Shown: in pieces, positions 6,308 to 44,554 of the stretch
Position numbering within the stretch: the stretch's first letter is position 1
How the letters are laid out: each line of letters starts with the position of its first letter
Origin: Candidatus Omnitrophota bacterium
GTDB lineage: Bacteria > Omnitrophota > Gorgyraeia > VGKH01
Direction of reading: 5' to 3'
DNA length: 64,000 bases
NCBI GenBank assembly: GCA_022703055.1
Contig: JAKLEP010000003.1
Coordinates: 214,238-278,237, forward strand
Translations under genes and position numbers: made by a program
Notes under the pieces: generated by a model
What the model saw: only the letters and a program-made list of their open reading frames with translations
The model's database searches: none
Told to the model about the DNA's origin: nothing

Positions 6308-7161
6308 GGCGTGATTTCCGTTCCAATACCTTCGTTAGTAAAGATTTCAAGAAGCAAAGCATGCGGAACCTTGGCATCAATAATATGGGTCTTTTTAACC
6401 CCGCCTTCTACAGTATGCAGGCATGCCTTAAGCTTGGGAATCATCCCCTCCTGGATTACCTGTTCTTTAATTAATGACTTTGCTTCCTTGATATTTAAAG
6501 ACGAAATAAATGATTCATGATCTTCGATATTTCTCATGACCCCTTTAACATTGGTCAATAATACGAATTTTTCAGCTCCCAATGCGACTGCGATAGCCGA
6601 AGCTGCTTCGTCGGCATTTACATTATAAAGCTGTCTTTTGGCATCCTTAGCCATTGGGCAAACCACAGGAATATGCACTCCTTTTAATCTTTCCATAATT
6701 TTTGGTTTGTTAATCGCGGATATTTCTCCTACAAAACCTAAATCAACCTTGCCTTTTAGCTCTTTCTTTTTGGCTCTAATTACTTCTCCCGACGCATTGA
6801 GGCTGCCTGCGTCGCCTTTTAAAGCTTTTATTTCCTTGACGATCAAATGATTTAATTTGACCAGCTCCTCTGCCACGACTTTTAGCGTCTCGGCGTCAGT
6901 AACTCTTATGCCGTCGTGAAATTGAGCCGGTTTTCCTATTTGTTTCATGGCCTCGGTTATGCTCGGGCCGCCGCCGTGGACCAATACCGGTTTTATCCCC
7001 ACAAAACTCAAGAAAACTATATCTTCTAAAACGCTTTTGCGGATTTTCTCATCGCCCAAAATGCTTCCGCCGTATTTGATGACAAAAATCTTCTTGCGGA
7101 ATTCATGGATGTACGGAAGCGCCTCAATCAAAACATCGGCTTTTTTAATTATATCTTGCAT
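6304..7161 (-). CDS. argB: acetylglutamate kinase
   Basis: 285 aa; amino-acid-kinase family, VIKYGG and VHGGGP motifs; overlaps argD by 4 nt. Confidence 0.9.
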   Translation of the reverse strand: MQDIIKKADVLIEALPYIHEFRKKIFVIKYGGSILGDEKIRKSVLEDIVFLSFVGIKPVLVHGGGPSITEAMKQIGKPAQFHDGIRVTDAETLKVVAEELVKLNHLIVKEIKALKGDAGSLNASGEVIRAKKKELKGKVDLGFVGEISAINKPKIMERLKGVHIPVVCPMAKDAKRQLYNVNADEAASAIAVALGAEKFVLLTNVKGVMRNIEDHESFISSLNIKEAKSLIKEQVIQEGMIPKLKACLHTVEGGVKKTHIIDAKVPHALLLEIFTNEGIGTEITP

Positions 7162-13810: not shown

Positions 13811-14071
13811 TCAAATTTTTATTATTCTAGCTAATAAAATAAGCGCGAATGCCAAGCCAAAAATCAGCAACAGAATTCCTGCCCTTTTATGGACAGAAAC
13901 AAACTTCTTCTCATCGGTAATCTTCCATTCAAAGCCATAGGGGCGCGAGTATTTATTCTGCATTTCAATCCACAAATACGGCTTTAAGATAAGCAGCAGG
14001 CAAAAAAGGATCCAGCAAATCATGAATACTGCCAGAAACGGACCTATGACAATATCAAACTGAAAATCCAT
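13811..14071 (-). CDS. hypothetical small membrane protein (2 TM)
   Basis: Start placed at ATG 14071, preceded by GAGGG. Two long hydrophobic helices; no recognisable family. Confidence 0.4.
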   Translation of the reverse strand: MDFQFDIVIGPFLAVFMICWILFCLLLILKPYLWIEMQNKYSRPYGFEWKITDEKKFVSVHKRAGILLLIFGLAFALILLARIIKI

Positions 14072-14094
14072 TCTACCCTCCTTCAATGAGCGCA

Positions 14095-14453
14095 CAATTT
14101 ACGGAAACAAGAGTGACGTAAATTGTCTGCGCGAATTGAACCCAGCCCTCTAAGCTATTCCGATAGCGAGATACGCAATCTCTGTCTTAGCGCCCGCCAG
14201 GCACTTCCATACATTTTAAGTTTTCGTTCTCTATCCCGAGCTTCTTTCTCGGTTTTATAAGCTTCGTAATAAATAAGTTCGATTTCTTTTGTCGCTTTAT
14301 GCTGTTTTAACCTTTGTTCTAAATTAGCAGTAAAACCAATGTAAGTTTTATTGCTGCCCTTTTCTTTCAGTAAATATACGTAATACATTGCGCGTAGAGG
14401 GCTGGGTCAAATTCAGCCATCAAACTTACGTTCACTATCGTTCCGTAAGTTTG
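14095..14453. mobile_element. GIY-YIG ORF cassette bounded by ~58-bp imperfect terminal inverted repeats, inserted between leuC and leuD
   Basis: Left flank 14095-14152 and reverse complement of right flank 14395-14453 align over their length. Each has an outer hairpin (caatttacg..cgtaaattg / caaacttacg..cgtaagtttg) plus an inner block gaattgaacccagccctcta / tagagggctgggtcaaattc. No transposase or target duplication seen. Confidence 0.4.
14155..14388 (-). CDS. GIY-YIG nuclease-family protein (short, 77 aa)
   Basis: MYYVYLLK...KTYIGFT...RL.QH...YYE.....EA..RE..LK: GIY / YIG / catalytic-Glu spacing of the UPF0213-type GIY-YIG domain. Confidence 0.75.
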   Translation of the reverse strand: MYYVYLLKEKGSNKTYIGFTANLEQRLKQHKATKEIELIYYEAYKTEKEARDRERKLKMYGSAWRALRQRLRISLSE

Positions 14454-14457
14454 GGCT

Positions 14458-15759
14458 TCATTTGACCTCCTCAGGATGAGTAATTCTTCCTTTTATACTG
14501 CTTGCTGCTGCCACCGCCGGATTAGACAAATAGACAAAGCTCTTGGGATCGCCCATACGGCCAAGGAAATTCCTATTAGTTGTTGCCAAGGCAACTTCGC
14601 CTTCGGTTATGATTCCCAAGTGCCCGCCAAGACAAGGGCCGCAGCTAGGTGTCGTAAAAACTCCACCGGCGCGGATAAAAATCTCGGCTAAGCCCTCGTT
14701 AATCGCCTCAAGATAAATTTTCTGAGTCGCCGGCAAAACTATCAAACGTAAGCCTCGCGCGACTTTCTTTCCTCTTAATATATTAGCCGCAATCCTCAAA
14801 TCCGAAATCCGACCATTAGTACAAGAACCGATAACTACTTGATCCAACTTTACATTCTTCAATTGGCTTATTGGTTTTACGTTGCTAGGAAGATGCGGGC
14901 AGGCAATTGCCGGCTCCCATTTTGACACATCATAAGTTTTTACTTGCGAATACCTAGCAGCCTTGTCGCTGGCTAAATCGCTCCAGTTGTTAATTTTCTC
15001 TTTCCAGGCCTTCTCGCTTAATGATTTATATTTGGGCGTATGCCTGACATAGGCAAAAGTTTTTCTATCAGGGGCAATTATGCCGGATTTTCCCCCCGCC
15101 TCAATAGCCATGTTGCATATGGAGAATCTGTCATCCATATCCAAATCTTCAATAGCAACGCCTGAAAATTCCATAGCTTTATAGCTTGCACCATCGACAC
15201 CGATATCGGCGATGGTGTGTAAAATCAGGTCTTTACCGCCGACCCATTTATTAAATCTTCCTCTATAGACGAATTTTATTGATTCGGGAACCTTAAACCA
15301 AGCTTTTCCTAGCGCCCAGCTGGCAGCTAAATCGGTTGAGCCAACACCAGTGGAAAATGCGCCAAGCGCACCGTAAGTGCATGTATGGGAATCTGCGCCA
15401 ATCACCAAATCTCCTGGCGCAACCAATCCCAATTCTGGCAGCAACGCATGTTCTACGCCCATGCAACCGATCTCAAAATAATTTTTTATTTTGTATTTTG
15501 CCGCAAAGTTTTTTAAGGTTTTGGCGGCATTGGCTGCTTTTAAATCCTTGGCCGGCAAGAAATGATCAGGCACTAAAGCGATCTTGTCGCGATCAAATAC
15601 TTTCTTAAGACCAAGCTTCTCAAATTCCTCTATTGCCAAAGGCGCAGTGATATCATTACCCAAAGTCAAATCGACCTTAGCTAAGATAAACTGACCAGGC
15701 TTTAATTGTTTATTGCCTGTATGCGAACTTAAGATTTTTTCCGTAATCGTCATAGACAT
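14458..15759 (-). CDS. leuC: 3-isopropylmalate dehydratase large subunit
   Basis: 433 aa; aconitase-family blocks (DHT., GADSHT, GSCTNGR, Cys ligands CGPCLG). Confidence 0.85.
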
Positions 15760-44106: not shown

Positions 44107-44367
44107 TTAATCCTCCAAATTAACAATGGGGCTAATAATCTTACACAATTTTCTGCGCCCCGTTGTAGATTTGTAAAACTTTTCCTTCTGTCGGGCCTCG
44201 CTTAATGTTTCAAATGACTCGGTATAAATTAATTTGTAAGGACGATACGGACGCGACGATTTAACCTTACCAGCATTGTGCTCAGTTAAGCGTTTACCAA
44301 CATCTTCAGCCACGCCAGTATAAGTCTTTGTTTTTGCTTTGCTTAAAAGAACATAAACATGATGCAT
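44107..44367 (-). CDS. GIY-YIG nuclease-family protein (UPF0213-type, 86 aa)
   Basis: HHVYVLLS...KTYTGVA.D...RL.EHN.GK......YRPYKLIY.E.F....EA...E...K: full-length small GIY-YIG domain. Confidence 0.8.
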   Translation of the reverse strand: MHHVYVLLSKAKTKTYTGVAEDVGKRLTEHNAGKVKSSRPYRPYKLIYTESFETLSEARQKEKFYKSTTGRRKLCKIISPIVNLED

Positions 44368-44428
44368 AACTTCCTAACTTGTTGTTGGCGGACCCGCCTC
44401 GCCAGATTCTCTGGCGGGCGAGGTCTCG

Positions 44429-44464
44429 CCATTTTTGCCTGAGTTTAACTTGAGGCAAAAATGG
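44429..44464 (-). terminator. hairpin that base-pairs the 3' CCA of tRNA-Ser(GCT) with downstream sequence
   Basis: Plus-strand ccatttttgcct (44429-44440) / aggcaaaaatgg (44453-44464), 12-bp stem. On the minus strand it starts with the tRNA CCA. Confidence 0.4.
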
Positions 44465-44554
44465 CGGAGAGGCTGGGATTTGAACCCAGGGGCCCACTTT
44501 TGGCAGGCCAATCGCTTAGCAGGCGACTCCGTTCGGCCGCTCCGGCACCTCTCC
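44462..44554 (-). tRNA. tRNA-Ser(GCT), CCA encoded
   Basis: Hand fold: acceptor GGAGAGG/CCTCTCC, anticodon arm GTCGC-CTGCTAA-GCGAT, long variable arm, T arm CTGGG-TTCAAAT-CCCAG. Confidence 0.9.

Follow-up and report, generated by a model that had tools for sequence, protein, structure and literature searches.

The window analysed here, a stretch of 64,000 nucleotides (64 kb) from a Candidatus Omnitrophota bacterium (contig JAKLEP010000003.1, positions 214,238 to 278,237), raises the question of why a gene for a 77-amino acid GIY-YIG nuclease should lie inside a leu operon, between leuC and leuD, with hairpin-forming inverted repeats on both sides. The genes on the minus strand are ordered fabF, leuC, GIY-YIG, an 86-amino acid membrane open reading frame (ORF), leuD, leuB and asd. 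In the relatives L064, L066 and L067 (L numbers denote the loci compared), leuC directly adjoins leuD, and the GIY-YIG element of the window therefore reads as an insertion, in agreement with the initial annotation. Our preferred answer is that it is probably an ORF-carrying, presumably autonomous member of a family of tiny mobile elements that occurs in Omnitrophota and in some other uncultured bacteria and that would move by a nuclease-driven mechanism analogous to the action of the single-stranded DNA (ssDNA) nuclease SsnA.

The boundaries of the element were taken from the comparison of filled and empty sites in relatives, and its parts are listed in Table 1. The core had been recognized in the initial annotation (14095-14453), but the element actually runs 12 nucleotides (nt) further on each side. 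In gene orientation, the left terminus is TCAAATGA and the right terminus is TCATTGA. Each end is a 65-70-nt interrupted hairpin, composed of a 5-6-bp foot, a GA/GA internal loop, a 4-bp stem, a small bulge and a 10-bp stem. The foot reads TCAAAT/ATTTGA at left ends and TCAAT/ATTGA or TTAAT/ATTAA at right ends; the hairpin loop has the consensus GAACG.AGTGAA, and the return strand is followed by an unpaired tail, ACCCNGCCCTCTA.

Table 1. Coordinates of the element, its parts and the adjoining host features in the window
Feature	Position	Strand	Description and basis
Whole element, 383 bp	14083-14465	-	Left end, GIY-YIG ORF, right end; covariance model, fold, filled/empty sites in relatives
Left end module	14395-14465	-	Sequence, fold, covariation over 47 ends
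Left end, outer half	14431-14465	-	TCAAAT (14465-14460), GA, AGCC, inner stem CAAACTTACG (14453-14444), loop GAACGATAGTGAA (14443-14431)
Left end, return half	14395-14430	-	Inner stem CGTAAGTTTG (14430-14421), AT, GGCT, GA, ATTTGA (14412-14407), tail CCCAGCCCTCTA (14406-14395)
Right end module	14083-14152	+ (outer to inner)	Sequence, repeats, fold, covariance model, covariation
Right end, outer half	14083-14116	+	TCAAT (14083-14087), GA, GCGC, inner stem ACAATTTACG (14094-14103), loop (14104-14116)
Right end, return half	14117-14152	+	Inner stem CGTAAATTGT (14117-14126), CT, GCGC, GA, ATTGA (14135-14139), tail ACCCAGCCCTCTA (14140-14152)
77-amino acid single-domain GIY-YIG nuclease gene	14155-14388	-	Pfam PF01541, E = 6.9e-12
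leuC stop codon TGA	14458-14460	-	Inside the element, from the left terminus TCAAATGA; ORF table
Host junction past the right end	14069-14082	-	Shine-Dalgarno sequence AGGAGGG (14082-14076) and ATG (14071-14069) of the 86-amino acid membrane ORF; not part of the element
86-amino acid membrane ORF	13811-14071	-	Outside the element, between it and leuD; no family match

Formal comparison of the two flanks bore out the inverted symmetry that had been estimated by eye at roughly 75-80%. Within the narrower bounds of the initial annotation, 47 of 61 positions are identical (77%), and over the full ends (72 nt, 14083-14154 against the reverse complement of 14393-14464) the value is 56/75 or 75%, with z = 9.7 and none of 2000 shuffles scoring as high. 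A repeat search returned a 40-nt inverted repeat between the flanks, and also the outer hairpins, which were described as 9-10 bp long and proved to be perfect 10-bp stems with 13-nt loops on both sides; as stated, the stems differ between the flanks yet each is self-complementary. The inner block GAATTGAACCCAGCCCTCTA occurs at 14133-14152 (+) and, with two mismatches, at 14395-14414 (-), which are its only two matches in 64 kb, where 0.01 was expected; it does not abut the codons of the ORF, as had been thought, but is separated from the stop by 2 nt and from the start by 6 nt. A covariance model of the ends scored 89.4 bits at 14395-14464 (-) and 78.4 bits at 14083-14152 (+), and its scan of the 64-kb window revealed no further credible end. 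One additional match at 6377-6410 (E = 0.01) was dismissed as chance, as it has no hairpin and falls within a 285-amino acid ORF. A tRNA origin was also considered, since the inner block resembles the T-arm and acceptor end of the tRNA-Ser that lies beside a second GIY-YIG gene of the window; this was rejected, as ARAGORN and Rfam detected no tRNA or other family at the flanks.

The two ends are related to each other not only by sequence. The tail, 12-17 nt in length, pairs with the tail of the opposite end. In every element from which both tails were recovered (about 18 of 25), they match each other, and a C/A position is concordant in all 14 elements that carry it on both ends. Between elements, in contrast, the tails vary, and may read CCCAGCCCTCTA, CCCCGCCCTCTA or quite different self-complementary blocks (L009b, L023b, L063, L149 and a locus of the candidate phyla radiation, CPR). 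When 14083-14464 was folded as ssDNA, three contiguous helices formed around the ORF (z = -7.4), and the ORF-less element L009b gave three helices that follow one another without a single unpaired nucleotide (z = -9.5). Thus, as a single strand, the whole element is predicted to collapse into three stacked helices that bring its two termini together. As a separate observation, the left terminus TCAAATGA of all copies (14458-14465 in the window, for example) holds the overlapping start/stop motif ATGA, which, as read from the window sequence, could open an 8-codon mini-ORF (MKPKLTER, then stop) that ends in the hairpin loop.

Whether these folds matter as DNA or as RNA was answered by covariation. 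A covariance model built from 19 ends recovered 47 ends in 26 loci, and in these, 95.5% of 864 cells are standard pairs, while 17 of the 19 pairs change on both sides. None of 500 shuffles was as high, and sliding the partner by 1-3 columns left only 20-37% of the cells paired. The alignment was fitted to part of the structure that was tested, which favours it somewhat; the outer foot, however, is outside the model and covaries equally well. Among mispaired cells, G.T and A.C numbered 6 and 7 at left ends and 10 and 8 at right ends. Since G.T is as rare as A.C, and no asymmetry exists between ends that are transcribed in opposite senses, the constraint is on Watson-Crick pairing in DNA and not on folding of the transcript. 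Consistent with this, no Rfam match was found for the element.

The mobility of the element was judged from its relatives. The exact window protein is found at the leu site only, on 11 contigs from several samples, and the ORF-containing element is present on every one of the 11 contigs that have the identical membrane ORF; it is therefore fixed and single-copy in the window species. In other genomes, the same ends and ORF recur at different loci, so that the arrangement is not confined to this site, and the initial view of a mobile cassette stands. In L009, the homologue P0002 (87% identity) is flanked by a hypothetical gene and an EamA transporter gene, and in L010 it follows cdhD; P0003 occupies the cdhD site, and P0011 separates queF from a fumarase gene, these three homologues carrying the same ends in three further contexts. 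The elements L009a and L010 are identical at all 337 available nucleotides, and their flanks are unrelated. A scan with a 20-nt pattern, using one genome per species, yielded about 20 true ends, hosted by Omnitrophota metagenome-assembled genomes (MAGs) and a single-amplified genome, a 'Planctomycetia' MAG and unclassified MAGs, with several genomes holding copies on at least four contigs. About half of the 45 matches to this pattern were discarded as chance, being high-GC coding sequence for EFDPALY with no hairpin or terminus and low model scores. No viral contig matched the pattern, and plasmids gave one weak protein match only, a GIY-YIG protein of Azospirillum.

In addition to the ORF-containing copies, 20 ORF-less elements of 155-225 bp were recovered, which resemble miniature inverted-repeat transposable elements (MITEs) and outnumber the ORF-containing form. 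Each has both ends and an interior of about 30-90 nt, and L053 has three of them in a stretch of 8 kb. By tblastn, no trace of the nuclease gene was detected in these elements, the interiors of which bear no relation to the ORF; therefore, the two forms are not simple insertion or deletion derivatives of each other. By eye, the ORF-less interiors seem conserved among copies of one genome (L023 and L046), and a G-rich motif (GGTTGGAG, GGGTGGAGG, GGGCGGGAG) appears about 20-40 nt from the left tail in several of them, such as L023:7157-7232, L027:3807-3880 and L057:5694-5768.

The most direct comparison was offered by the junction of hyp139 and EamA, which exists in three states: it is empty in the window species (L155, GATAAGGAGTAATATG), occupied by an ORF-less copy in L149, and occupied by an ORF-containing copy in L009, where the filled site reads GATAAG / TCAAATGA...CTCATTAA / AGGAGTAGATATG. 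Together with the identical copies in unrelated flanks, the occurrence of one site in the empty, ORF-less and ORF-containing states indicates, at the level of sequence, that the family is mobile. The empty queF/fumarase site of L044 was too diverged (about 60% amino acid identity) for the insertion point to be located. The junction of leuC with the membrane ORF also varies, as it holds an ORF-less copy in L063 (LeuC 91% identical). The L063 ends are only 67-72% identical to those of the window, as opposed to 82-83% for the flanking genes, and the L063 right end is 90% identical to that of L011, from the same lake; moreover, L149 is a mosaic, the left end of which resembles that of L011 and the right end that of L009a, while the interior differs. 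Since the L063 ends diverge more than their flanks and resemble L011, and since L149 is a mosaic, copies have evidently been replaced or converted, beyond mere inheritance, to judge from these alignments.

A similar layout, with different sequences, reaches beyond Omnitrophota, based on a CPR homologue of 86 amino acids (53% identical) in Candidatus Falkowbacteria (L159:1390-1900, JACRNW010000009.1), the ORF of which lies between the complementary blocks CCCCCCACTTA ... TAAGTGGGGGG. An additional long hairpin on the same block follows this homologue.

The position of the insertions is as characteristic as their ends. In 25 of 26 elements, a co-oriented ORF starts within 32 nt of the right end, and 22 of the 26 have a motif like the Shine-Dalgarno (SD) sequence within 14 nt of it, the consensus being CTCATTRA/AGGAGG with the element boundary at the stroke. 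On the other side, 24 of 26 are preceded by a co-oriented ORF with its stop at -12 to +53 of the left terminus, and in 14 of 26 this stop is at offset 0 to +5, i.e., inside the terminal octamer. The empty/filled pair shows that the downstream SD is the host's own; thus, the family inserts immediately 5' of AGGAG. Because the left terminus often supplies the stop and the host SD is intact at the right terminus, the operon keeps working after insertion. No target-site duplication of fixed length was seen by eye in the 26 copies, which show direct repeats of 0-7 nt of SD-like sequence, and the empty/filled pair permits a duplication of at most 2-3 nt (AG/AAG). In the window, the TGA of leuC is itself contributed by the element: LeuC ends in ...HPEEVK, where relatives end in ...HPEEIS or ...HPDEMS, and its last residues (VK) are partly element-encoded. 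Comparison with L063 suggests that a 16-nt deletion may have fused leuC to the element.

The sole gene of the element appears to be intact. The assignment of its 77-amino acid product to the GIY-YIG class was upheld by an HMM search, in which a single PF01541 domain covers residues 1-58 and Pfam returned families of the GIY-YIG type only. The family comprises 170 homologues, mostly 71-90 amino acids long among the 120 matches listed, and a profile search of 1.84 billion representatives retrieved 1135 clusters at E <= 1e-10; the labels of homologues at JGI are generic ('predicted GIY-YIG superfamily endonuclease', 'putative endonuclease'). Residues Y5, Y16, G18, R26, H30, E42, R53, E54 and K58 are invariant in 65 sequences, and dN/dS among the ORFs of the window, L009 and L011 is 0.09-0.16 at 14-16% nucleotide difference. 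AlphaFold modelled the protein with a pLDDT of 93.4 as a GIY-YIG core (three strands and a helix) followed by C-terminal helices and nothing else. The best solved matches were UPF0213 protein BH0048, Slx1 (root-mean-square deviation 1.9 A over 67 columns) and the catalytic domain of I-TevI, and UPF0213 is nearest by sequence (E = 8.5e-8). The initial annotation was right that about 8-10 residues are missing, after the His, but the suspicion of decay did not hold: the short length is family-wide and thus a trait of the clade, dN/dS is low, the catalytic residues are invariant and the fold is confidently modelled, all of which argue that the nuclease is intact and under purifying selection. The gene lacks an SD sequence and a promoter-like site of its own, and is probably co-transcribed with the leu operon for this reason; in the element as a whole, no promoter-like site and no sense-strand terminator were found.

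A cassette of this kind was initially thought not to be a described class, a view that is now out of date. Chenal et al. (2025, PMC11893778) have described single-domain GIY-YIG Ssn nucleases, the genes of which are flanked on both sides by hairpin repeats; these were presented as the first site-specific ssDNA nucleases, and the reason for their layout, which resembles an insertion sequence, was left open. According to the same paper, SsnA of Neisseria meningitidis (94 amino acids, cd10448 GIY-YIG_unchar_3) cuts ssDNA only, a few nucleotides 5' of a hairpin repeat named NTS or SRM, for which the base right after the palindrome is critical; in 42% of homologues, the nuclease gene has this repeat on either side, and further copies are dispersed in the genome. 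The authors likened NTS-ssnA-NTS to an insertion sequence and suggested domestication (PMC11893778). Our search of the literature on GIY-YIG proteins with terminal inverted repeats (TIRs), MITEs or insertion sequences returned nothing closer than this paper, and in the sections of it that were read no report was found of movement, ORF-less derivatives or a target site.

The two systems share a single-domain GIY-YIG protein of less than 100 amino acids, a C-terminal RE+KLK..W motif, a gene placed between inverted hairpin-forming repeats, and a location within operons in the orientation of the host genes (Azospirillum sufB/sufC; L130 leuC/leuD). Dispersed repeats, as in the Ssn genomes, occur for our family in relatives (on at least four contigs in each of two MAGs), and in the window only the two flanking ends are present. 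In hhalign, the family profile matched the SRM-flanked protein of Azospirillum with 98% probability (E = 1.3e-13, 32% identity, 66 columns), and the match to the second GIY-YIG protein of the window was weaker (E = 1.5e-9). There are also clear differences. Our protein has 77 residues as against 94-97, without the roughly 8-10 residues after the His and the C-terminal 'NP.W.DL' tail, and is 29-32% identical to the Azospirillum protein; the 65-70-nt interrupted hairpins with a tail pairing between ends contrast with the 28-nt NTS; and the two-ended ORF-less copies, the defined stop/SD position and the empty/filled pairs documented here were not found in the sections of the Ssn paper that were read (PMC11893778). 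The SRM motif, HGTCWYN(0-2)YYVSBRHN(0-5)WNVSBRGN(0-2)RNCYNB, had no match in the 64-kb window and one unrelated chance match in the 26 element loci, whereas the same expression did find SRMs in Azospirillum L158 and in L130. Given that the motif is absent and that the nearest solved proteins by sequence are UPF0213, the Omnitrophota element is best filed as a variant that may work like an Ssn cassette, and not as a demonstrated Ssn. The kind of element has thus been known since 2025, and the Omnitrophota family differs by a shorter protein, different hairpins and direct evidence of movement.

Some right ends (L023:7233-7284, L046:972-1023, L048:4194-4238 and L033:68-113) have a short GC-rich hairpin, e.g., CCCGCCATTGAAACAGTGGCGGG, in place of the 10-bp A/T-rich stem and the conserved loop, and keep the foot and the tail. 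For this reason the inner stem-loop seems dispensable, like the loop of the NTS hairpin for SsnA, which can be replaced or extended (PMC11893778). Ssn cassettes of Proteobacteria also lie within operons. In Azospirillum lipoferum 4B plasmid AZO_p3 (L158:1379-1887; NC_016623.1, 255.4-255.9 kb), a 97-amino acid GIY-YIG gene is co-oriented between sufB and sufC, with four SRM matches, two per side in inverted orientation. In an unrelated organism (LeuC 59% identical), leuC/leuD holds a canonical Ssn-type GIY-YIG gene for about 96 amino acids (...FVYLLSTKKNGTLYIGVTNDL...NPSWKDLYDDLG; L130:3900-4330, SDBV01003423.1). It is preceded by the SRM/NTS match TGTCATTCCCGCGAAGGCGGGAATCCAG and followed by a variant repeat, and shows that the known Ssn clade has invaded the same junction independently.

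By analogy with SsnA, the nuclease could recognize the hairpin foot in ssDNA, such as replication forks, transcription bubbles or DNA entering the cell could provide. It would bind the foot together with the conserved tail 3' of it, and would nick just 5' of the foot, at a point that coincides exactly with the limit of the element; the top strand would be nicked at the left end, and the bottom strand at the right end. Excision, insertion or the copying of one copy into another might then be completed by the repair or recombination machinery of the host. To our knowledge, GIY-YIG nucleases have no strand-transfer activity and are not known to join DNA, so host repair or conversion between copies would have to finish the event. 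The same fact weighs against a nuclease-driven family, since a GIY-YIG nuclease alone cannot be a complete transposase, and other findings point in the same direction. There is no target-site duplication of fixed length, and repeats of 0-7 nt fit no known cut-and-paste chemistry. The copy of the window species is single on all 11 contigs that have the neighbouring gene, with no other end in 64 kb. The ends do not match the SRM motif, and the best solved relative by sequence is UPF0213 and not a demonstrated Ssn. Lastly, ORF-less copies greatly outnumber ORF copies, and several genomes have only ORF-less copies in the stretches examined; for this reason, the ORF may be a passenger or may have invaded secondarily. 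We nonetheless favour the nuclease-driven family as the probable explanation. A more ambitious form of it, which we entertain tentatively and with more doubt than belief, holds that these elements are a true transposon family and encode no protein other than the 77-amino acid nuclease. In this view, the ends would be recognized as folded ssDNA, self-folding of the whole element would make its termini meet, and new copies would be placed precisely between a stop codon and the SD of the next gene. If true, there would be a class of prokaryotic transposon based on a GIY-YIG nuclease, and Ssn cassettes in general would be, or would have been, transposons.

The abundance of ORF-less copies agrees with the first of three rival explanations, in which the ORF-less double hairpin is the primary mobile unit, moved by another enzyme. 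The GIY-YIG gene would then code for a homing endonuclease and be carried into the centre of ORF-less copies when the enzyme cuts them and they are repaired, spreading among existing copies and not to new sites. This would also explain why the ORF is invariably found in one orientation, with an inner block immediately on each side, and why the same site may hold either form, and the mosaic L149 does suggest conversion between copies. However, no other transposase gene is found beside any copy, the ORF-less copies have no ORF remnants by tblastn and unrelated interiors, and the Ssn parallel suggests that the nuclease acts on the hairpins themselves; overall, we consider this scenario unlikely. 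The second rival, which we rate as quite unlikely, is that nuclease and hairpins have become a fixed host function of the window species and no longer move, comparable to the modulation of transformation by SsnA/NTS or to RAYT/REP. The single copy, identical on 11 contigs from different samples, the strong purifying selection and the lack of other ends in 64 kb agree with it, and domestication has been proposed for NTS-ssnA-NTS in the Ssn paper (PMC11893778). Nevertheless, a host function would find few targets if the sampled part of the genome has only two hairpins, sites and states vary among close relatives, and an active selfish nuclease should be under purifying selection just as much. 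Finally, the idea that the hairpins act in mRNA (processing, stability or translational coupling of leuC to the next gene) with only incidental inverted symmetry draws on the transcription of the element within operons without a terminator or promoter of its own, its exact placement at stop/SD junctions and the ATGA at its left terminus, but is highly improbable in view of the equal rarity of G.T and A.C at oppositely transcribed ends, a conserved loop and tail whose sequence, taken from opposite strands, is the same at both ends, the lack of an Rfam match and the linked nuclease gene, which it leaves unexplained.

The proposed nuclease-driven family was also compared with other known systems. 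Like REP/REPIN sequences with their RAYT (TnpA-REP, HUH Y1), it combines one small nuclease gene between inverted hairpin repeats with non-autonomous hairpin doublets dispersed between genes, and recognition of ssDNA hairpins has been proposed for both; in contrast, the copies here occur at stop/SD junctions in a fixed orientation, and since the enzyme is a GIY-YIG and not an HUH/Y1 protein, no covalent tyrosine intermediate would be expected. IS200/IS605 elements, which transpose as ssDNA by 'peel and paste', are likewise very small, have ends defined by subterminal DNA hairpins and not by sequence-conserved TIRs, and insert beside a short specific motif with strand or orientation specificity and no regular target duplication, a pattern with which the insertion of our family directly 5' of AGGAG is compatible. 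Their hairpins, however, are on the same strand and unlike each other, whereas ours are inverted copies on opposite strands, and no HUH Y1 transposase (TnpA) was found in the element, for which Pfam returned GIY-YIG-type families only.

Free-standing GIY-YIG homing endonucleases (T4 SegA-G, I-TevI type) have the same catalytic core and are also selfish genes between conserved genes. They differ in having a DNA-binding domain of more than 100 amino acids, cutting double-stranded DNA and spreading to allelic sites only, without terminal hairpins or ORF-less derivatives; our protein has no separate DNA-binding domain, as 77 residues leave no room for one. Bacterial MITEs (Correia of Neisseria, ERIC, RUP) resemble the ORF-less copies of 155-225 bp in being structured, intergenic and co-transcribed with inverted ends. 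Classical MITEs, however, pair the left with the right TIR, have a fixed target-site duplication (e.g., TA) and derive from DDE insertion sequences, while here each end folds on itself, no fixed duplication is seen and the linked gene is a GIY-YIG nuclease; no DDE transposase is present, the GIY-YIG gene being the sole ORF of the element. Integron cassettes, lastly, share a promoterless, co-oriented ORF bounded by an imperfect palindrome (attC) that acts as a folded single strand, but our elements have no integrase and no attI, carry two hairpins per unit instead of one attC, and are scattered in operons and not arrayed.

The family provides comparative evidence on why Ssn cassettes look like insertion sequences, namely identical copies at unrelated loci, a site in three states, abundant non-autonomous copies and a position that spares the operon. 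If the nuclease does drive movement, transposition or homing would be possible with some 230 bp of coding sequence and without a recombinase, which would account for some of the orphan hairpin repeat families in bacteria. A 77-amino acid nuclease that may recognize a defined DNA fold would also be an attractive minimal scaffold for ssDNA tools. For annotation, it is relevant that such elements change the C-termini of upstream genes, as in LeuC here, and split operons that are normally contiguous.

Turning to the neighbourhood, the 86-amino acid membrane ORF is confined to the window lineage and L063/L125, and is missing from L064, L066 and L067. No precise empty site was found for the junction of leuC with this ORF, the more distant relatives being without the membrane ORF as well. 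Small inserted genes accumulate at the leuC/leuD junction; in L065, an unrelated 202-amino acid ORF occupies the position of the membrane ORF. The second GIY-YIG gene of the window (44107-44554 region) encodes an 86-amino acid, UPF0213-like protein that is 37% identical to the first over 63 amino acids. It has no inverted flanks and lies 94 nt downstream of tRNA-Ser(gct) (44462-44554, minus strand), and, by eye, there seem to be two strong hairpins between this gene and the tRNA (about 44385-44425 and 44424-44461).

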